A stretch of DNA of 64,000 bases from a virus, in IMG/VR virus record IMGVR_UViG_3300048548_000653, positions 12,978-76,977 of that record, one strand, 5' to 3'. The position numbers and the translations under genes are program-made. Of this stretch, positions 3,170-53,687 are shown one piece after another. Under the pieces are notes generated by a model. It saw only the letters and a list, made by a program, of their open reading frames with translations. It was not told the origin of the DNA and ran no database searches. The first letter of the stretch is position 1; each line of letters begins with the position of its first letter.

Positions 3170-5215
3170 TTATTTACTTGTGGCCACAAAAACGCCATTC
3201 CAATCTGAAGGCAAGTCTTGTGTTTTCATATACTCGCATCGTTCAATCCACATATCATAATATTTTTCCATTCTATGGTCAAAATTAGTGTATATTGTTT
3301 TACATAAACGTATAGCTTCATCCCAGTCCTGTGCTTTATATGCAGTATGCATATCGGCGTGTCTACGTTGGGGAACAGACCAAGCAGGTGGACCGCCATC
3401 GAGTACTGTATATATACTAAGTCCTACACTTTTGCCTTTGACTTGCAAGTCATCTACTTTGAGATAGAAGAAATCGTCTTTTGTTTGCTCGTATGTAGAT
3501 TCTCCAACAAGTAGTAGACATCCGTACTCTTTACACTTGCTTTCTACTCTTGCTGCGGTGCTGACAGCGTCTCCAAGGACATCATATGAATGACGTTTAG
3601 TACTTCCCATTTCACCAAGGTAACCCAACCCTGTGTTGATACCAGCACCCATACCAACAGCAGGACGACCATCAGGTATAATAACTTTTTCATTAAATTT
3701 TTCCACTGCTTTAAGCATATCTAAGCCACACTGTACTGCTGAACGAGCGTGGTTAGGATCATCTATAGGCGCATTGTGTATGTGCATACTTGCATCGCCT
3801 ATGTACTTGATAATCATTCCATCCATATCTAAAACAGGTTGTGTAATACTGTCCATATAGCCATTCATAATTTTAGTAAGACCTTTAACATCATCACCAA
3901 AAGATTCACCTAGTGGTGTAAATCCACGCAAATCACTGAACACTATACTAACTTCTTTTTTCATTCCTTCTTTGATTAAAGCAGGATTTTCTTGTAACAT
4001 ACGCACAACTGTAGGAGATGCATATCCAGCAAACTGTTTTTTGATAGCGTTCTTTTGTAAAAACTCGTCAACAAACTTTAATACATAACGTATTAATCCT
4101 ACAAGAATTAAAAATGCAGCAGGTAAAGCACCGTCTACGAGCAAGGCATACTGTGCAAAAATATAGTTGCTACCATAAATGCTGCCGCCAACTGCAAGCA
4201 CAAAAAAGGCTATACCTACATATGTCCATCGTGCGATTAAAATTAGTACTATACCTACTGCTATAAAGGCGGCTAACTCTGCCCACTGTTCTGCGTCTGG
4301 ATGTCTGCTAATATTTGATTGATTAAACACTGTTCCTAGCATTGCTGCTTGTACTTCGTGTGGAAATACGCTGCCTGCTGCTGTTGCTAGTGGCTGTGTA
4401 AGCCCTGCTGCTGTTGGTCCTACAAACACTATACCGCCAGCAAAGTCATCTGGTAAGTCTACTGCGCTCACGCTTTTGCTGCGTTGGCTCCAGTCTATCC
4501 ACACTTCGCCTGTAGGTGATGTTTGTATTATACCAAACTGCGGTATGCGTAGTTTGTCTACACCCATAGGTGATAGTTTGATTTGGAACGAAGGATCACC
4601 TGCTAGAACACGTAGCACTTCCATTGTAACATTTGGATACAATGTGCCGCCGCTTTCAACCACTAAAGGTATTCGTCTTGTTACGCCGTCTACTTCTGCC
4701 CAACTGTTGGTTATTCCACTGCCTACTGCCGAGAATTCCACATCAGGTACATTAGCAATAATACCAGGAACACTAGGAATGGTACCAATATAATCGCTGT
4801 TAACAATAGTAGCACCAGGATTGATCGCTTCATTCTTATTCTCCTCTGCACCCAACATTGTAACGATAACAGGCAATTGCTGCATAGTTAAGGCTAATGT
4901 AGCATCTTCACCTGATCTGTCTGTTTCCGACATCAACACATTGAACACCACTAGTCCAGCGCCTCTGGCATATAAATCCTCTATAAGGCTACCATAATCA
5001 CCTCTCGGCCACGGCCATTGTCCGTATGCCTCTAAACTTGGTTCATCGATGTTCACTGTGTAAATGTTGTTTTCAACAGGTTGTTGATTTACAATAAGTG
5101 TGTCAAAGTATCGTAGTTTAAGACTTTCTAAAAATGGTGGATTACTTTGCATTACCCACGCAAGAATGCCCAAAACTATAATGCTCCATATTGGGGAAAA
5201 TATTAGTTTTTTCAT
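3170..5215 (-). CDS. CHASE2-domain class III adenylate/guanylate cyclase
   Basis: N-terminal TM; CHASE2 motifs (IDEPSL..GQWPWPR, DGVTRR); 3 TMs; cyclase motifs FSDLRGFT, KYIGDA, GINTG, YDVLGDAVSTAAR; C-terminal WNGVF. Confidence 0.92.
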   Translation of the reverse strand: MKKLIFSPIWSIIVLGILAWVMQSNPPFLESLKLRYFDTLIVNQQPVENNIYTVNIDEPSLEAYGQWPWPRGDYGSLIEDLYARGAGLVVFNVLMSETDRSGEDATLALTMQQLPVIVTMLGAEENKNEAINPGATIVNSDYIGTIPSVPGIIANVPDVEFSAVGSGITNSWAEVDGVTRRIPLVVESGGTLYPNVTMEVLRVLAGDPSFQIKLSPMGVDKLRIPQFGIIQTSPTGEVWIDWSQRSKSVSAVDLPDDFAGGIVFVGPTAAGLTQPLATAAGSVFPHEVQAAMLGTVFNQSNISRHPDAEQWAELAAFIAVGIVLILIARWTYVGIAFFVLAVGGSIYGSNYIFAQYALLVDGALPAAFLILVGLIRYVLKFVDEFLQKNAIKKQFAGYASPTVVRMLQENPALIKEGMKKEVSIVFSDLRGFTPLGESFGDDVKGLTKIMNGYMDSITQPVLDMDGMIIKYIGDASMHIHNAPIDDPNHARSAVQCGLDMLKAVEKFNEKVIIPDGRPAVGMGAGINTGLGYLGEMGSTKRHSYDVLGDAVSTAARVESKCKEYGCLLLVGESTYEQTKDDFFYLKVDDLQVKGKSVGLSIYTVLDGGPPAWSVPQRRHADMHTAYKAQDWDEAIRLCKTIYTNFDHRMEKYYDMWIERCEYMKTQDLPSDWNGVFVATSK

Positions 5216-5935: not shown

Positions 5936-6417
5936 TACCAACTTCCATTAATTTTTCCGATTATGTAAACTACAAACACAAGCAAACCTGCACCTATAAT
6001 TGCTGCTATTGACCCAACTATCCATTCTACAATAACTTGTTTGCGTTCTTCTTTTGCATAAACTTCGGCAGCACGTTTTTTACGCATTTCACCTTCAATG
6101 CGTACAATTTCGTCCCAAGCACTTGGACCGTAGTAAAAGCTGATGTGCGTTTTCATTTCTTCACGCATTTCTTTTGCTTTCTGTTTGTGTCCCCAAATTT
6201 CTAGAGCATTTTGCTCTATTTGACTTGCGCCAAACAGTTTTTTGAACATTGGTGGATTTTGTGCTTGTTTGTGTGAAAAGTCTAAATCACTCATTGCGCC
6301 TGCCCACTGCGATAGTGTGCCTGCCATATCGTGCAGTTCTTTTCCGGTGTCTATTGCTGACTTGATTCCGCGATATGCTGCCGTGGCCAGACCAATAGCT
6401 GATACTGGATCTATCAT
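5935..6417 (-). CDS. phage membrane protein with C-terminal TM
   Basis: MIDPVSAIGLA start, helical core, C-terminal hydrophobic helix. Confidence 0.6.
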   Translation of the reverse strand: MIDPVSAIGLATAAYRGIKSAIDTGKELHDMAGTLSQWAGAMSDLDFSHKQAQNPPMFKKLFGASQIEQNALEIWGHKQKAKEMREEMKTHISFYYGPSAWDEIVRIEGEMRKKRAAEVYAKEERKQVIVEWIVGSIAAIIGAGLLVFVVYIIGKINGSW

Positions 6418-30721: not shown

Positions 30722-30744
30722 ACAATTCTCCCTTGTTTTGGAAT

Positions 30745-31027
30745 GAGGCCCGTTCTGTTGCTAGGTGGAACCCATACCCCGCATACCTAATTAGGCTGCA
30801 ATTGCCATTGCTGGCGCACGATTGTCATTTGCAATTGTGAATGTTGACCAATAACGCAGTCATCCGGTAAACTCCACTTCACTTTCACACCTGTCGATCC
30901 TAGTTCAGCCCCATCATAATTACTCTATGCCGTAAATTTGTAGTTTTTACGCTACAAAGTAATTATGGTGGAGCTGCCGGGTACTGCCCCCGGGTCCAGT
31001 ATGCGTTCACGTTGCTTCAACGTCTAC
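30745..31027 (-). ncRNA. ssrA: circularly permuted two-piece tmRNA
   Basis: piece ending CAGCTCCACCA (30966) precedes GGGGCTGAACTAGGATCGAC (starts 30912); G3-U70 pair; GGCAGTA T-loop; tag ORF 30832..30791 = ANDNRAPAMAIAA*. Confidence 0.93.
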
Positions 31028-31031
31028 AGTC

Positions 31032-31062
31032 TATTTATAACATAGATTTAAGCTTGTGTCAA
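31032..31062 (-). promoter_or_regulatory. composite early/late promoter for tmRNA
   Basis: TTGACA-17-TATAAA overlapping TATAAATA. Confidence 0.7.
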
Positions 31063-31070
31063 CAGACAAG

Positions 31071-45751: not shown

Positions 45752-46621
45752 TTACTTACGGGCTTTTTTTGCACGATTATGCAATATTTTAAGTTGATCT
45801 ATATATGCAGGACCTGCTTTTACAATGTCGTGAACTATCATAACCAACGGAAAGTACGCTGATGCAATGCTTGCAGGTATTGTTTGACCTTTGCTGATCA
45901 TATTTAAAAAACGACTTACAAAAGGTAAACTGTTTACTGGCAGTATCAATCTATACATTTGTACGTCTGCCATACCCATTTTATCCGGTGTGCTTATTTT
46001 TGGTTCTGGATCAGTAGCATTAAAATCTTCTAAGTTATTATCACCAGCAAACTTGCTGAACATAGGCATAACATCACTATCACTTAATTTACTTCTAGCC
46101 GCAAACAATAAACGTGTAATGGTTGTTTTTCTTTCTGCTTGTGTGTCAGTGTTAAATGTATTCAGCCTTCTACGTATTTCTCTATATTGAGGATTAGATA
46201 TATCTAAATCGGATTCTATCAATGCTAATGCTTTAATGTCTTCCGGAGTAACACTATCGCCGCTTGCAAGACGTCTAAGGAAGCCATTTAGTTTTCCTAC
46301 ACTAATGACTGTAGTTTTTCTTAATTTTGCAGCTGAATCAAAATCTTTTAATTTTTTTAGAGCAGATTCATCACCCATTATAAAATAATAAAGATTGAAC
46401 AAATCTGTGCTGTCAATTCTAAAACGATTATATTCTCTAAACATTACAGTTTTGTATGCATATTTCATAGCATCAGTTTTATGTTTGCGATAAAAACGCA
46501 TAGCTTGTAAACAAAGGATTGTGAGGTATGCTTTTTCTTTACAGTCAGTGTAAGATAGCAAACGCTGATTTCTTGCATCACGAGTCATTCTTGACTCCTG
46601 TAAATCTTTTATGAAATTCAT
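45752..46621 (-). CDS. hypothetical phage protein
   Basis: MNFIKDLQESRM start; 289 aa. Confidence 0.6.
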   Translation of the reverse strand: MNFIKDLQESRMTRDARNQRLLSYTDCKEKAYLTILCLQAMRFYRKHKTDAMKYAYKTVMFREYNRFRIDSTDLFNLYYFIMGDESALKKLKDFDSAAKLRKTTVISVGKLNGFLRRLASGDSVTPEDIKALALIESDLDISNPQYREIRRRLNTFNTDTQAERKTTITRLLFAARSKLSDSDVMPMFSKFAGDNNLEDFNATDPEPKISTPDKMGMADVQMYRLILPVNSLPFVSRFLNMISKGQTIPASIASAYFPLVMIVHDIVKAGPAYIDQLKILHNRAKKARK

Positions 46622-46872
46622 CTTCGCTTGCTTTCTTTTATTTTTTCTACACCAACTTTAAATTTTTTACTACTACCAGCTTTGATGCTATTGATCAATC
46701 TTCTTTCAAGATCAATAGCTTGCTCAGTATCATATATTTTATGCACTTGTTCAAGTAGATTTACTGCACTATCAATAATGTTAGTGCCTGTAGTCTGAAT
46801 AAAATCATCACTGCGTTCTTCAACACGTAGATTACTTAATTCTTCTAATATACTTCTAGTGCGTTTTCTCAT
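46618..46872 (-). CDS. hypothetical phage protein
   Basis: MRKRTRSILEEL; TAAATA 4 nt upstream. Confidence 0.6.
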   Translation of the reverse strand: MRKRTRSILEELSNLRVEERSDDFIQTTGTNIIDSAVNLLEQVHKIYDTEQAIDLERRLINSIKAGSSKKFKVGVEKIKESKRR

Positions 46873-46879
46873 ACTGTAT

Positions 46880-47638
46880 TTATATCATTTTTTCTATGTT
46901 GGCAATATAGTTGACCATACTATGATCAGAGAAGCTATCAATGCCACCTTGCTTGATACCCATCCACATACCACGCCAGCGATCTTTTGTACGCTGCCAA
47001 GTTGTGAGTTTACGCTCTAAGCCGTGTGCATTCATATAATGTTCTGTGCCGTGATGCACATAACCCATAGCTCTTAATGGCACTCTAGTAACAATATCAT
47101 TATTGTTTACCCAACGATGATGTGCTACATTTAAACTACGACAGTAACCACGCCATCCTACTCTTGGCGAACCGTATGTGTACACTTCCTGTATATCTGG
47201 CATATCAACATCGCAGTTGCATCTACTAGCCATAATAGTTGTCATAGCAGCACCTAAACTATGTCCGCAAAACCAAATGTTCTTGTCTCGGTTAGTTTTA
47301 CGTGCTAGGTCTTCAGATACCATAGGCCATAGCTCATCTACTTCTGCTTTGAATCCTCTGTGTACTCTACTGACTGTTTCTGCTATCACTGGTGTTGCTT
47401 TCAAATCAGCCTTAATATCGTTAAACTCACTTGGTTGCGTTCCTCTACAAGCAATTACTAAATCTATCTTATTCATAAATCGATATGCCTGTGCTCCGTC
47501 TTTGTTGTAAAATTCTACTGTAGTAAACCCTAATTTTCTAACATCTTTTTTTACTTGGTCTATATTGTCATTGTATGCTATACTTGCTAGTTTTGCAAAT
47601 AGTAAACTTCGTTCCATAAATTTCATTTCTGTAATCAT
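46880..47638 (-). CDS. class 3 lipase
   Basis: CRGT, VHRGF, GHSLGAA, TYGSPRVG, NDIVTRVP, DH. Confidence 0.9.
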   Translation of the reverse strand: MITEMKFMERSLLFAKLASIAYNDNIDQVKKDVRKLGFTTVEFYNKDGAQAYRFMNKIDLVIACRGTQPSEFNDIKADLKATPVIAETVSRVHRGFKAEVDELWPMVSEDLARKTNRDKNIWFCGHSLGAAMTTIMASRCNCDVDMPDIQEVYTYGSPRVGWRGYCRSLNVAHHRWVNNNDIVTRVPLRAMGYVHHGTEHYMNAHGLERKLTTWQRTKDRWRGMWMGIKQGGIDSFSDHSMVNYIANIEKMI

Positions 47639-47656
47639 TTTGCCCTCCTAAATAAA

Positions 47657-48178
47657 TTACATCGGTGTGAACCTCACGTTTTCAATTACCCAGTCGATAG
47701 GTTCTTCATATGCAAATTGCAGCATATACCTATCGTGTTCATTGTTTGTTACACTATGAATCCACTCTCCTGTATTTAATATCACAGCGTTCTCTTTGTA
47801 ATAGTATGTATGCCTTTTTTCATCTGCATCAAAGAAGTCAACAGGAGCAAACACATCCAGTGACGGAGACAGATACCAACTTACACTGCTACTCTTTTTT
47901 GTGTATTGGACAAAGTCAATATGCCTTGGAACTGGGTCGTATGGCGGATTATGTAATAGATAAACATTGTGGGGAAGTATATTCACACATTTTAACAAAG
48001 GCTTCATATCAAGGTACGGAACGTTCCTACTAATGCCGTGCATAGTTCTTTCTTTGTCTTTTTTAGCGTACTGGCCGTATCTAGTATATGTTGCCTTTTT
48101 AGCAACCTTTAGCATTTTTTTCCTAAAGTCGTCTGTGATAAAATGTTTTAGTTCGTGCCAAAAAGGTCCTTGATGCAT
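47657..48178 (-). CDS. 2OG-Fe(II) oxygenase-like protein
   Basis: RHID...IHSVTN...RYMLQ. Confidence 0.6.
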   Translation of the reverse strand: MHQGPFWHELKHFITDDFRKKMLKVAKKATYTRYGQYAKKDKERTMHGISRNVPYLDMKPLLKCVNILPHNVYLLHNPPYDPVPRHIDFVQYTKKSSSVSWYLSPSLDVFAPVDFFDADEKRHTYYYKENAVILNTGEWIHSVTNNEHDRYMLQFAYEEPIDWVIENVRFTPM

Positions 48179-48213
48179 AATGTCCTCTCTACTTACTATT
48201 AATTATACAAAAT

Positions 48214-48242
48214 AAAAAAAATGGGTGCTAACCTTGGCACCC
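48214..48242 (-). terminator. Rho-independent terminator
   Basis: gggtgcca..tagcaccc followed by T8 on minus strand. Confidence 0.7.
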
Positions 48243-48279
48243 GGCGTGTGTATTACGTCACAACCCGACCCTATGGGTA

Positions 48280-49642: not shown

Positions 49643-49652
49643 ACTAAAATAG

Positions 49653-49681
49653 TAGGGCAGCTTCACAGTTGCCCTATTTTT
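49653..49681 (+). terminator. Rho-independent terminator
   Basis: tagggcagc..gttgcccta followed by T run. Confidence 0.7.
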
Positions 49682-49842
49682 CTGGGTGCGCAGATATGCA
49701 CAGTTGCATTGTACGCATATCGGGTTTTTGCTATTTGCACTTGTTTTTCACGGTTATACGTGTTAAATATAATTGTAGAAGGAGAAAAACTAACGCAAGT
49801 TAGACTCGGATCACACATACATATATAGATAGGAAAAAATAA

Positions 49843-50103
49843 ATGACTACTTTAGTAGCAAATACCTTTGAGATTGTTGGATTACACGGCATCGCCAACT
49901 TTTTCAAAAAACTAGGTGCCGAACTCAAAAGACGTAGACGCATTCGTCAAACAATTAACGAACTATCAAGACTTACAAACCACGAACTAAACGACATTGG
50001 TCTTAGTCGCGGAGACATTTGGTATGTTGCAAACCAGTCATACCCAAAAGCACTAAGTGGCGAAGCTGTAGAAGCAAACCGCAACTTGAGAGGTTGGGTA
50101 TAA
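49843..50103 (+). CDS. DUF1127 (YjiS-like) protein
   Basis: RRRRIRQTINELSRLTNHELNDIGLSRGDI; ends NRNLRGWV. Confidence 0.9.
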   Translation: MTTLVANTFEIVGLHGIANFFKKLGAELKRRRRIRQTINELSRLTNHELNDIGLSRGDIWYVANQSYPKALSGEAVEANRNLRGWV

Positions 50104-50294
50104 TGGAAGCAGTAGGAAACACCCCCGTACCAACACCAAAGTTTATCAAAACACTTGGCAAATATGTCGTTGCATTTGCAATGGGCGTATGGGCATTTGG
50201 TGAATCGGCAGGCAGAGCAAGAGCAGCCGCTGAACTATCACGCCAAGGCTACTACAAAGAAGCCAAAGCACTTATGTTGGATGACAACAGATGA
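50103..50294 (+). CDS. small protein, RAAAEL.R.GY motif
   Basis: TAATG coupling; [22 protein letters not shown]. Confidence 0.6.
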
Positions 50295-50512
50295 CAGGTG
50301 ATATAGCAACAATGGGCGCAATGATTGGCGCCGGACTAGCAACATTCGGAATGGGTGGCGCTGCCATCGCAGTAGGAATGATTGTTGGTAGTGTACTCAA
50401 AGTTATGCCTAAGAAGCCTGACAATGGTACAATGTTTGTCGGTGTTGCATTTGCAGAAGCATTAGGTATATTCGCATTCTTAGTAGCACTCCTACTAATG
50501 TTTGCTGTCTAA
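50291..50512 (+). CDS. atpE: F0F1 ATP synthase subunit c, atypical loop
   Basis: [16 protein letters not shown]; [20 protein letters not shown] with conserved Glu; RNP loop absent. Confidence 0.88.
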
Positions 50513-50733
50513 TGGTAGGCGATCAACACATAGAGATATCAGCACAGGTAGTACAGAAGCTAGGGTTTTATATGTTTGTAGTAATGACTTCATTGCTTAT
50601 TATATGTATAGCCTTTGGCTTCTACGCTGTGATTGATCAGTTCAAACAACCAAATTGGCAAGAAGCGTGTATCGCACAAGGCGGTGTACCAGTACAAATA
50701 GAAAAGTCAACATACGACTGCAAAGGAATATAA
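50512..50733 (+). CDS. small membrane protein
   Basis: single TM followed by CIAQGGVPV...C. Confidence 0.55.
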   Translation: MVGDQHIEISAQVVQKLGFYMFVVMTSLLIICIAFGFYAVIDQFKQPNWQEACIAQGGVPVQIEKSTYDCKGI

Positions 50734-50734
50734 T

Positions 50735-50869
50735 ATGTTTAAGAAGTTTATGAAAGCAATGGAATACAGAAGTTATTGTATGGCAATCAGGGAACTTAGA
50801 AGCAGAGGCTATTATAAAAAAGCTGAAGAAATCTCTGAGTACAAACACAAAATGTTTCCGACCTACTAA
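50735..50869 (+). CDS. small protein (44 aa; not in ORF track), similar to 50103..50294
   Basis: MFKKFMKAMEYRSYCMAIRELRSRGYYKKAEEI. Confidence 0.55.
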   Translation: MFKKFMKAMEYRSYCMAIRELRSRGYYKKAEEISEYKHKMFPTY

Positions 50870-50936: not shown

Positions 50937-51251
50937 ATGAGCGTAGACACAAAGTACGGCGAAGCCATCTTTAAACAAACACAGGAAGTTGCTGAAATGT
51001 TTAAAGCCGCAATGCCTAAAATCACAACTAATAAAAACGGTTACGAAATCCGCACCAAAGTGCTAGAAATGGCACAAAACAATGTATGGCAAGATTATCA
51101 CGCTAAACTAGGTGCATATGAAACCACTGTGAAAAAAGACGGAGACGAAGTTGTAACAACAATTTCTATTCCTGAAGTTCCTGGTGCCGAAGCGGTGCTA
51201 GAGGCAGCTGAAAAGTTTTATGGATTTGTAGGCGGTAAACCAACTAAATAA
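50937..51251 (+). CDS. conserved phage hypothetical protein
   Basis: NGYEIRTKVLEMA...VLEAAEKFYGFV; TTGACA-17-TAGATT promoter; AGGAG. Confidence 0.65.
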   Translation: MSVDTKYGEAIFKQTQEVAEMFKAAMPKITTNKNGYEIRTKVLEMAQNNVWQDYHAKLGAYETTVKKDGDEVVTTISIPEVPGAEAVLEAAEKFYGFVGGKPTK

Positions 51252-51338
51252 CGTATAGGACAACTAATTTCAAGTAGGCGGGCATAGCCCTTTTTAACAA
51301 GCACATTTTAGAAACGCCCTCGTAGGAAACTGCGGGGG

Positions 51339-51599
51339 CTAATCTATATCTAAAGCTCTTGGATTATCGCCGCCTGATGTTGCTGGGTACGATGCTTTAT
51401 CTTTGTGTAAATCATCGCCATCTGGATATCCTGCGTCAGTTGAACTAAGATATTTTTCATCTGGCGAATTGCTATGTTGTCTGTTTAGGTGAGAAAGTAT
51501 TTGTTTGAATCTACTAGGCGGTTCGCCTGGTACATCAATAACATTTGATTCTTGATCAAGGACATCCAATAAAGCTCGAATAATATCTTGTGCTCGCAT
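51339..51599 (-). CDS. hypothetical phage late protein
   Basis: TATAAATA and GGAG upstream. Confidence 0.55.
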   Translation of the reverse strand: MRAQDIIRALLDVLDQESNVIDVPGEPPSRFKQILSHLNRQHSNSPDEKYLSSTDAGYPDGDDLHKDKASYPATSGGDNPRALDID

Positions 51600-51650
51600 T
51601 TAATTTCTCCGTACAGTATTTATAATAAGTACAGCACGAAAGGATGACGT

Positions 51651-52067
51651 ATGAACATTAAAAAAATATTTTGGGCCGGTTGTGGTTTCCTATTATTGGG
51701 CATTGCTTACTTAGGAGTAATTCTACCTGGCCTACCTTGGAGTATCTTTGTAGTAATGGCTGCATACTGTTTTGCCAAGAGCAGCAAAAGAATGCACGAT
51801 TGGTTGTACAATCATAAACTGTTTGGTCCATTTTTAACAAACTGGAGTGAGAAGAAAGTATTTCCATTGAAGTTGAAATACTTTATGATCGCTACTATGG
51901 CAACCACTGTTGCATTTACTTACTTCGCAACAGGCAACGATAAGGCTGCTTTATGGACTGGTGGATTTATGATTCTTGTTGCTGTGTATTGCTGGAGATA
52001 TCCAAGCACTACTGAAGAGTATGATAGACGCAAGGCTGCTGGAGAAAAGATAGCCTGGTTTAAATAA
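51651..52067 (+). CDS. ybaN: YbaN/DUF454 inner-membrane protein
   Basis: GVILPGLP...AAYCFAKSSKRMHDWLYNHKLFGP. Confidence 0.85.
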   Translation: MNIKKIFWAGCGFLLLGIAYLGVILPGLPWSIFVVMAAYCFAKSSKRMHDWLYNHKLFGPFLTNWSEKKVFPLKLKYFMIATMATTVAFTYFATGNDKAALWTGGFMILVAVYCWRYPSTTEEYDRRKAAGEKIAWFK

Positions 52068-52071
52068 AAAG

Positions 52072-52103
52072 AAAAAAGGTAGAGGGGGTCTTCTCCCTCT
52101 ACC
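52072..52103. terminator. terminator between convergent genes
   Basis: ggtagaggg..ccctctacc with A run. Confidence 0.6.
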
Positions 52104-52112
52104 AATTGATGT

Positions 52113-52343
52113 TTACTTGTGTTGCCAGATGGCCCACAGTACCCACACAGCAATTAATCCCATAATTCCTTCTGAACCAAGCGAACCTAACATTGCTGTT
52201 ACGTTTGCCACTACACTCATTTCTGGCATAAATGGCATATTGCCTAGTCCTAGAACTTCTAAGATGATTGCAAGAGCTGCAATGCTAACACCAACGTTTG
52301 CTAATGCGCCTGCCCACTCTTTTACTTTATTAAGCATTTCCAT
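52113..52343 (-). CDS. small two-TM membrane protein
   Basis: AGGAGGT RBS; hydrophobic. Confidence 0.65.
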   Translation of the reverse strand: MEMLNKVKEWAGALANVGVSIAALAIILEVLGLGNMPFMPEMSVVANVTAMLGSLGSEGIMGLIAVWVLWAIWQHK

Positions 52344-52487
52344 TTGAAAATACCTCCTTCTTTTGTGCTACATTATGTAGCAGAGTATTTAAATATACAT
52401 CAGTATACTATTAAAACCCAACTAAACCGTAATACGATAGCTTAACCTACAAAAAGATAAATATTTTTTTAATTAACAGAGAGTTTA

Positions 52488-53687
52488 ATGATAGATTTAT
52501 CCCCGTTTGAAAAAGTAATTGATGACTTGAAGCAAGAAGGCAAGTATAGAATTTTCAATGATATACTGCGTGAACGTGGAGACTTTCCAAAAGCAATTTG
52601 GTATGGTCCGTATAATATTAAAAATATTGTAAACTGGTGCAGCAATGATTACTTAGGAATGGGACAACATAAAGTTGTAATAGATGCGATGCATACTGCA
52701 TTGGACCAAACAGGTGCTGGTTCAGGTGGTACAAGAAACATTGGTGGTACATCGCACTATCACGTTGCACTAGAATTTGAACTAGCGTCTTTGCATAGCA
52801 AGGAAAGGGCGTTGTTGTTCTCTAGTGCATTTGTCGCAAATGAATGGAGTCTAATTGCTTTAAGCAAAATCATTCCCAACATTGTGTTTTTGAGTGACTC
52901 AAAGAATCACGCAAGCCTCATACAGGGTATCCGACACAGTGGTGCTGATAAATTAGTATGGCAGCACAATGATATGGAGCAATTAGAGCAACGATTGGTC
53001 GAGAGTACCGCCAGCGGACAAGTCCCCTGCATTGTTTTCGAATCTATATATAGTATGGATGGCGATGTAAGCCCAATTGAAGCAATTTGCGACCTTGCCG
53101 ACCGTTATGGAGCAATAACTTATATCGACGAAGTCCACGCTGTAGGATTGTATGGAGAAGCTGGAGCAGGGTATTTAGAAAAATTGAATATTCAAGATAG
53201 AGTTGATATTGTAAACGGAACACTCGGCAAAGCATTTGGCATCACAGGAGGTTATATTGCCGGAAAAGGGGTAGTCATAGACGCTGTCCGGAGTGTGGCT
53301 AGTGGATTTATTTTTACTACGTCACTGTCACCTGTGCTTTGTGCTGGAGCGTTGGCTAGTATAAAGTATTTAAAAGACCACAACGAACTCCGCGAACAGC
53401 ATCAGGCTCAAGCAATGAAGTTAAAAACTAAATTGATTGAAGCTGGCGTGGAGGTTTTAGATAAAGCCTGTACTCATATCGTTCCTGTGATGATCCGTGA
53501 TGCCAAAGTATGCAAAGCAATCAGTGATTGTTTATTAGATGACCACGGCATCTATGTTCAACCAATCAACTATCCAACGGTTGCTGTGGGTGAGGAGCGT
53601 CTCCGTTTTGCTCCAACTCCACTTCATACTGACGCTATGATTGAAGAGTGTGTTATGGCAGTTACTAAATGTCTCAATTCACTGTAG
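52488..53687 (+). CDS. hemA: 5-aminolevulinate synthase
   Basis: WCSNDYLGM, GTRNIGG, DEVHAVGLYG, GTLGKAFG (PLP Lys), QPINYPTV, RFAPTP. Confidence 0.95.
   Translation: MIDLSPFEKVIDDLKQEGKYRIFNDILRERGDFPKAIWYGPYNIKNIVNWCSNDYLGMGQHKVVIDAMHTALDQTGAGSGGTRNIGGTSHYHVALEFELASLHSKERALLFSSAFVANEWSLIALSKIIPNIVFLSDSKNHASLIQGIRHSGADKLVWQHNDMEQLEQRLVESTASGQVPCIVFESIYSMDGDVSPIEAICDLADRYGAITYIDEVHAVGLYGEAGAGYLEKLNIQDRVDIVNGTLGKAFGITGGYIAGKGVVIDAVRSVASGFIFTTSLSPVLCAGALASIKYLKDHNELREQHQAQAMKLKTKLIEAGVEVLDKACTHIVPVMIRDAKVCKAISDCLLDDHGIYVQPINYPTVAVGEERLRFAPTPLHTDAMIEECVMAVTKCLNSL

Follow-up and report, generated by a model that had tools for sequence, protein, structure and literature searches.

Few molecular machines have been studied as thoroughly as the ATP synthase, and we know of no published virus with a gene for a component of its rotor; a literature search for a phage-encoded c subunit gave no paper describing one, the K02110 preprint being concerned with eukaryotic phototrophs. 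Cyanophages carry the energy AMGs psbA, PTOX, and plastocyanin, and the phage energy AMGs known to us keep their host function. Assembly of the bacterial c-ring has a dedicated small membrane protein, AtpI/UncI, and in Escherichia coli the loop substitution Q42E in the c subunit uncouples Fo. Likewise, Arg41 of E. coli c is essential for F1 binding and coupling, and the R41K replacement leaves the proton conductance of Fo normal, as stated in PMC6063947, which cites Fraga et al. 1994. In mitochondria, the small membrane protein TMEM70 serves c-ring assembly (bioRxiv 10.1101/2020.04.03.023861).

The gene considered here lies in a 77-kb IMG/VR viral contig, of which we analyzed bases 12978 to 76977 (the window, i.e., the whole 64-kb stretch; Table 1). 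An intact ORF encodes a 73-aa c-subunit variant, and this is the protein that the first-pass annotation had described, with a loop identical to the one quoted there. A search with Pfam PF00137 (ATP-synt_C) gave 47.6 bits (cut-off, 24; E = 1.9e-12) over profile positions 1 to 60 of 60, and the same model scored 46.9 bits in a whole-genome search. Among solved structures, its best sequence match is to the c subunit of Paracoccus denitrificans (5dn6_J; E = 7.6e-15), and that alignment has a 5-residue gap where helix 2 begins. An AlphaFold2 model built with 45 family members is a two-helix hairpin (mean pLDDT, 81). When its fold was compared with the PDB, every top match was a c subunit, 5dn6_J ranking highest (TM, 0.64), although the E-values are weak for so small a fold. 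The proton-binding E56 shows no substitution in any of the 45 aligned viral sequences, the 115 loop-variant rows of our alignment, or the cellular sequences compared. The glycine-rich packing motif of helix 1 (GxGxGxG type) is kept as G20, G22, G23, and G29; position 27 is Ala here, where 70% of the phage family and 99% of the cellular sequences have Gly. The resemblance to Rhodobacterales AtpE noted in the first pass, with both helices and the proton-carrying Glu, is thus borne out by PF00137, 5dn6_J, and the intact Glu56. As far as sequence can tell, what these marine T4-like phages carry is an F-type c subunit of the Rhodobacterales type that came from a host.

Table 1. Features of the c-subunit cassette and its surroundings, in positions of the window
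Feature	Position	Strand	Remark
Permuted two-piece alphaproteobacterial tmRNA, complete	30742..31066	-	RF01849, 138 bits; RF04321, 120 bits
Class-3 lipase	46880..47638	-	67.5 bits
Multi-pass membrane protein, 323 aa	48280..49251	-	divergent from cassette; no Pfam or NCBIfam match
Terminator-like hairpin, 12-bp stem then UUUUUCU	49651..49684	+	after preceding gene
Sigma-70-type promoter-like site: TTTTCA, 17-nt spacer, TATAAT	49745..49773	+	10/12 consensus matches
DUF1127 small protein, 86 aa, first gene of operon	49843..50103	+	PF06568, 52 bits (cut-off, 23.3)
Small protein, 63 aa, one hydrophobic helix	50103..50294	+	stop overlaps c start (ATGA)
c-subunit variant, 73 aa	50291..50512	+	helix 2-38, loop 39-44 (MPKKPD), helix 45-72
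Ala27 codon	50369..50371		GAAIAVG here, GAAIGVG in cells; Ala in ~30% of phage family
Rewritten, shortened F1-facing cap, residues 35-47	50393..50431	+	R-N of R-N-P lost, Pro kept, 5 residues deleted
Proton-binding Glu56 codon, inside AFAEALG	50456..50458	+	sequence alignment
Phage-only single-pass membrane partner, 73 aa	50512..50733	+	start overlaps c stop (TAATG)
Small protein, 44 aa, motif EL-R-GYYK-A akin to 63-aa protein	50735..50869	+	sequence motif
Protein of 104 aa, last gene under RNA-library contigs	50937..51251	+	no family match (Pfam, PHROGs, NCBIfam)
DUF454 (YbaN-like) inner-membrane protein	51651..52067	+	104 bits
PLP enzyme, 399 aa	52488..53687	+	Aminotran_1_2, 224 bits

The departures of the phage protein from its cellular relatives are concentrated at one end of the hairpin. 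In a column-by-column comparison, the segment from Phe49 to V73 is the cellular sequence apart from I50V and S62A, and 17 of 25 helix-2 positions, lying on every face of the helix and including E56, are invariant among the phages. All of the systematic differences between phages and cells fall in alignment columns 36 to 57, the cytoplasmic third of the hairpin, so the cap has been rewritten as a whole, beyond the loop alone. The protein is 73 aa long versus 78 aa in cells, and the R-(N/Q)-P motif is found in 0 of 79 viral copies versus 65 of 65 extracted cellular Rhodobacterales copies, in agreement with the missing motif and the shortening by about 5 residues seen in the first pass. The exact register of the loop depends on the program: a family-wide MAFFT alignment keeps the Pro and sets VMP opposite RNP, while HMMER pairs KKP with RNP; in both, the Arg and the Asn of R-N-P are absent from the phage protein. 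The cell-conserved residues lost from the cap are Asn/His30, Asn34 (92% of cellular sequences), Gly38 (100%), Ala39 (100%), a Leu (98%), the Arg (100%), the Asn (100%), a Gln (99%), and a Thr (95%), with Asn/His30 and the others conserved in 84 to 100% of the cellular rows; the Pro is the sole conserved cap residue retained, in 83% of the phage rows. The protein also failed the alphaproteobacterial AtpE equivalog model of NCBIfam, NF005733 (60.8 bits against a cut-off of 85). Hence, of the loop replacement originally proposed, the loss of Arg and Asn stands, but the change is wider than the loop and the Pro survives it.

About 80 IMG/VR phage contigs carry the c gene, with the frame intact in every one of the ~80 loci whose contig spans the whole gene, and a large protein database (metagenomes) returned 457 relatives. 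Several classes of loop sit on nearly invariant helices: the MPKKPD type, to which the present gene belongs (73 to 75 aa); MPKKGEGDQG (75 to 76 aa); xYIKDxxxQ and TAVKDANKQQ (76 to 77 aa); and (A/M)(L/M)PHRS, which is without an indel (78 aa). The canonical cellular class is GALRNPSAA (78 aa). The best cellular matches among 185,579 species-representative genomes reach at most 65% identity and are all 78- to 80-aa Rhodobacterales genes. In a maximum-likelihood tree of the 59 helix columns, computed with the loop columns removed and of limited resolution, a single branch parts 115 loop-variant rows from 85 R-N-P rows (one change; SH-aLRT, 79). This topology fits, while not proving, a single acquisition from Rhodobacterales, after which the cap diversified within phages. 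The viral c gene is fully at phage composition, since GC3 is about 0.30 to 0.32 in the viral copies versus 0.74 in cells; a low-GC Rhodobacteraceae single-cell genome (L090; GC3, 0.32) keeps the canonical loop.

The 77-kb record, with a CheckV completeness of 24%, has genes for a ribonucleotide reductase and for proteins with matches to phage families of tail spikes and virion structure, and one c-bearing relative is a 221-kb record (CheckV, 100% complete) with a T4-type Gp23 capsid gene (5e-146). The carriers of the c gene are T4-like myoviruses. Homologs of subunits a, b, alpha/beta, gamma, and epsilon are absent from both the 77-kb record and the complete 221-kb relative, and PF00119, PF00430, PF00006, PF00231, and PF02823 gave nothing over cut-off in either. 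As the 221-kb relative is complete, the c gene is alone across a whole genome, and the earlier remark that the window has no other atp gene holds for both records. A tblastn search of 50,697 deposited phage genomes gave no match to the c gene, so no cultured or deposited phage carries it, and PHROGs has no family for phage c, its membrane partner, or the 104-aa protein. The window also encodes a complete permuted tmRNA with the ARAGORN tag peptide ANDNRAPAMAIAA, an unusual phage cargo in itself; because this tmRNA is of the alphaproteobacterial type, it supports an alphaproteobacterial host.

Around c, small plus-strand genes run with overlapping stops and starts. The DUF1127 gene is present in 76 of 80 c-bearing loci, the other four having no room upstream (i.e., 76 of 76 with room). 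The 63-aa protein (dN/dS, ~0.42) has 220 viral relatives, mostly in c-less loci, and in c-less relatives the 44-aa gene comes straight after the 63-aa gene; the 63- and 44-aa proteins share EL-x-R-x-GYYK-x-A and resemble paralogs. When viral contigs were probed with the 63-aa protein (80 loci), 63 loci had the DUF1127, 63-aa, and 44-aa genes contiguous, with neither c nor partner, while 14 had c plus the partner between the 63- and 44-aa genes; within this set, c never occurred without the partner nor the partner without c. DNA alignment of c-bearing with c-less loci revealed an exact insertion of ~445 nt at the gene boundary. On account of this co-presence and exact insertion, we take the functional unit to be c plus the single-pass protein, inserted in an older small-protein cassette. 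That older cassette is made up of the DUF1127, 63-aa, and 44-aa genes, with at least 220 viral relatives that are mostly c-less. The inserted unit is accessory: most close relatives are without it, and, judged by the 63-aa protein, some c-less loci resemble the present locus more closely (90%) than do many loci that have c (59%). The wider flanks vary across the 80 c-bearing loci. NCBIfam held nothing for the partner, the DUF1127 protein, or the 44-aa protein, and PADLOC (anti-phage defense) gave no match for any of the five cassette proteins. Three loci of the xVKD class are built differently (L078, L079, and L081, with c at 4622-4855, 6001-6234, and 6001-6234, respectively), in that an acidic 55- to 59-aa protein and a 40-aa TM peptide replace the 63-aa protein and a glutaredoxin-like gene follows the partner; hence, c and the partner occur in more than one cassette architecture.

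The partner is found in 77 of the 77 c-bearing loci with room for it, always adjoining c, and, to judge by the overlapping stop and start, the two proteins are made by translational coupling. Its alignment displays one invariant face of the TM helix (G18, F22, M25, L28, C32, G36, F37, and V40), which implies a fixed helix-helix contact; the near-invariant c next door would be the obvious candidate for the other side of that contact. A C-terminal domain, PNW-EACI-GGVP-DCK, holds two Cys residues and is absent from a short-form subclass, so the conserved core is the N-terminal segment plus the TM helix. In the AlphaFold2 model, a long helix (residues 3 to 44) is followed by a small, low-confidence C-terminal helix and hairpin. 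The partner is under constraint of its own (dN/dS, 0.14), and neither Pfam nor PHROGs, NCBIfam, or PADLOC has a match for it. Among 1.84 billion representatives, a profile search returned 7 clusters only, and the ESM Atlas was uninformative, giving only unnamed viral clusters with scores below 0.9. As an obligate companion of c with a single helix, it is a candidate new c-ring-binding protein.

Further genes lie near the cassette in this or related loci. The DUF454 protein and the class-3 lipase, which flank the cassette region, are further membrane-related accessory genes. The 399-aa PLP enzyme is, as we take it by eye, a member of the 5-aminolevulinate synthase/AONS family and would be a possible heme or bacteriochlorophyll precursor AMG near the c cassette. 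In 17 related loci, though not in the present window, a secreted cupredoxin (PF00127, 58 bits; plastocyanin/azurin family) is encoded directly 3' of the cassette (e.g., L035:6602-7042, at about +600 nt from c), and in 31 related loci an Hsp20/alpha-crystallin small heat shock protein (PF00011, 63 bits) lies just 5' of the DUF1127 gene (e.g., L022:5124-5582, at about -830 nt from c). The 323-aa membrane protein bears PiT-like motifs by eye (NDSVQTLG, VPVSTS, and IPMSTT). We considered it as a hidden subunit a and rejected the idea, given those motifs, the lack of a PF00119 match, and its presence in only 4 of 80 loci; that same rarity among c-bearing loci makes it independent of the c unit.

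Selection was measured on 36 distinct nucleotide versions of the MPKK class (dS, ~0.83). For phage c, dN/dS is 0.085 overall, 0.10 in helix 1, 0.038 in helix 2, and ~0.10 in the loop, where dS is near saturation. From the loop value it follows that the cap is constrained within a class, yet it is wholly different between classes. The alignment proposed in the first-pass annotation as a check on its reading therefore comes out in favor of that reading, since a large family of phages shares the loss of the loop and is under purifying selection (dN/dS, 0.085).

Part of the cassette is present in six metatranscriptome runs from five studies, and in the four runs (four studies) compared, RNA-library contigs with zero differences cover it; such contigs attest presence only, may stem from carried-over DNA, and come from runs that were picked with this very stretch. 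One of them, of 717 nt (49818-50534), takes in the DUF1127 and 63-aa genes and the whole of c, and a few carry the c-less junction. The flanks at 46500-48250 and 51269-52500 are without RNA-library contigs in all four runs; this is no sign of silence, and the runs were selected by the cassette. Contigs from two studies start at 49778-49784, a weak hint only of a transcript start. The hairpin after the preceding gene (-17.2 kcal/mol; z, -3.5; equaled by 0 of 200 shuffles; unlisted by a consensus scan) marks what we predict to be the upstream limit of the cassette transcription unit. The T4 late motif TATAAATA does not occur upstream of the cassette on the plus strand and is not enriched in the window (10 found versus 8.7 expected). 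The sigma-70-type promoter, together with the position among T4 replication genes, suggests that the operon is expressed early or in the middle of infection, apparently by the host RNA polymerase. Lysis timing, one of the roles floated in the first pass, is disfavored by this promoter type and this neighborhood.

How might such a protein act? No part of the protein is constrained as strictly as the carboxylate and the outward-facing helix, which implies that proton exchange with a subunit a is still selected; since the phage encodes none, that subunit a would have to be the host's. We therefore give somewhat less than an even chance to the reading that phage c rings work with host subunit a and cannot dock F1, leaving an uncoupled proton path. 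Phage c would form rings, either pure or mixed with host c, the partner perhaps serving as an assembly or gating factor; protons would continue to pass between these rings and the subunit a of the host, and the rings would be unable to bind the gamma/epsilon foot of F1. Such an Fo, free of F1 or uncoupled from it, would give protons a path that bypasses ATP synthesis, by which the phage might throttle or vent the host proton motive force. Ring formation, the use of host subunit a, the failure of F1 docking, and the physiological effect are the steps that we infer. The first-pass annotation had proposed a decoy subunit or an F1-independent leak, a reading with which all of the present findings are consistent; its decoy in mixed rings would be one sub-case of the uncoupled Fo.

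Several points weigh on this reading. Subunit exchange does not come readily to mature c-rings, and host gene expression is usually shut off by T4-like phages; there is thus a difficulty in how phage c would meet new host subunit a. As a proton leak in early infection costs the phage ATP, a benefit must be assumed. Candidates are relief of respiratory back-pressure beside electron-transport AMGs (compare the cupredoxin of 17 loci), exclusion of superinfecting phages that need the membrane potential, and a redirected proton motive force; lysis timing is less likely, for the reasons given above. Some residual contact with F1 is possible, because all of the loop classes keep basic residues near the conserved Pro. 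In its general form, that the c-partner pair tampers with the proton-driven energy machine of the host, the proposal is probably right. The specific form, which we put forward slightly more tentatively than the uncoupled proton path itself, is that the two genes make up a proton-valve module of marine T4-like phages that infect Rhodobacterales, composed of a captured rotor subunit, still working with the host's subunit a but no longer open to capping by F1, and a phage-invented single-helix assembler or gate.

The constraint on E56 and helix 2 also bears on an a-independent alternative, which we consider unlikely, in which the lumen of the phage ring itself conducts, F1 is unable to cap it, and the partner plugs or gates it, the whole being a holin-like or permeability-transition-like depolarizing device. 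The c-ring pore model is disputed in general. Even so, purified mitochondrial c-rings have been reported as a large channel closed by F1 (PMC9433415), the F1 dock is lost in phage c, no subunit a is encoded by the phage, and the ring could hold, inside it or on its surface, the single-helix partner that always comes with c and has one invariant face. A lumen, however, has no need of an outward carboxylate or an invariant outer helix, and these are the most conserved parts of the protein. An essential holin role is excluded by the 63 of 80 related loci that are without the unit, and the promoter type and replication-gene position point to early or middle rather than late expression. Examined as a holin or pinholin, c plus the partner departs from expectation in having a sigma-70-type promoter, no late motif nearby, and replication and accessory genes as neighbors; no holin family in PHROGs matched the pair.

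About as improbable, in our estimate, is that the c hairpin and the partner have been co-opted for another target, by jamming Fo via host subunit a, by superinfection exclusion, or in some other function of the envelope. Such a role would fit with the phage-only partner that c always has, with the small regulatory-type proteins of the operon, and with the accessory nature of the unit and its mobility between phage backbones. The near identity of helix 2 to host AtpE speaks instead for native c-c and a-c interfaces, and we have no evidence pointing to any alternative target.

The conserved membrane parts would equally serve a working rotor subunit, one that enters the host ATP synthase and is coupled to F1 via other contacts, supplying rotors or shifting ring size and the H+/ATP ratio. 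Gly/Ala changes in the helix-1 motif are known to alter c-ring size and stoichiometry, and the present subclass has GAAIAVG versus the cellular GAAIGVG; this change is found in only ~30% of the family. The loop still holds the Pro and basic residues, and some neighbors are energy related (the cupredoxin in 17 loci and, here, the PLP enzyme read as an ALA synthase). We nevertheless rate this unlikely. The cell-invariant residues that contact gamma/epsilon are all lost together from a cap that is 5 residues shorter, the equivalog model NF005733 failed, and the loops MPKKPD, xVKDxxxQ, and PHRS are so entirely unlike one another that they are hard to square with one conserved F1 foot. In E. coli, even the conservative R41K abolishes F1 binding and coupling, according to PMC6063947. 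Finally, a decaying or unexpressed captured gene, or an artifact of assembly or annotation, to which the lost loop motif, the shorter protein, and the isolation from other atp genes might have pointed, can be dismissed in the face of a dN/dS of 0.085 over a dS of ~0.8, the intact frame in all of the ~80 full-gene loci, the preserved translational coupling, the exact RNA-library contig matches, and the 457 metagenomic relatives, so that the unexpressed, decaying copy which the first pass had named as fatal to its reading is rejected by selection, conservation, and the RNA-library contigs, and mainly by the selection data.

Set beside the Rhodobacterales/Paracoccaceae AtpE (PDB 5DN6, chain J), phage c shares the two-helix hairpin, the glycine-rich helix-1 motif, and AFAEALGIF, with ~50 to 65% identity overall and a helix 2 identical except for I50V and S62A. 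It differs in lacking the Arg and Asn of R-N-P, in the change of every cell-conserved cap residue bar the Pro, and in the failure of NF005733; furthermore, its gene has no other atp genes beside it, has a GC3 of 0.32 versus 0.74, and is always accompanied by a phage-only membrane protein. What is new here is a c homolog in a virus that fails the tests of functional equivalence to AtpE (R-N-P, NF005733, and atp neighbors) and is paired with a new partner. The c-ring assembly helpers AtpI/UncI and TMEM70 suggest, by functional analogy, a possible role for that partner, from which they differ in that it shows no detectable similarity to known families and has one TM helix, not two to four. Like the phage energy AMGs, c is a host-derived bioenergetic gene in an accessory region of marine T4-like phages; unlike them, it is without the feature that couples the host version to its complex. 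The locus thereby indicates, alongside those AMGs, an undescribed phage route to control of the host proton motive force. If the proposed mechanism is true, no earlier case would exist of a virus that takes over the rotor of the rotary ATP synthase and so controls how the host membrane is energized.

The closest functional analog of what the sequence of phage c predicts would be the E. coli uncE loop mutants (R41K/H and Q42E), in which loss of the loop Arg (PMC6063947, citing Fraga et al. 1994) or Gln leaves an Fo that conducts protons and abolishes the binding and coupling of F1. With its proton-handling parts kept and its F1 dock discarded, phage c is a natural experiment on rotor-stator and rotor-F1 coupling and, if our reading is true, a natural, evolution-optimized uncoupled Fo. 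The uncE mutants were made in the laboratory, by point mutation of the one c gene that the cell has, whereas phage c is a natural extra copy with a selected, wholesale rewriting of the cap.
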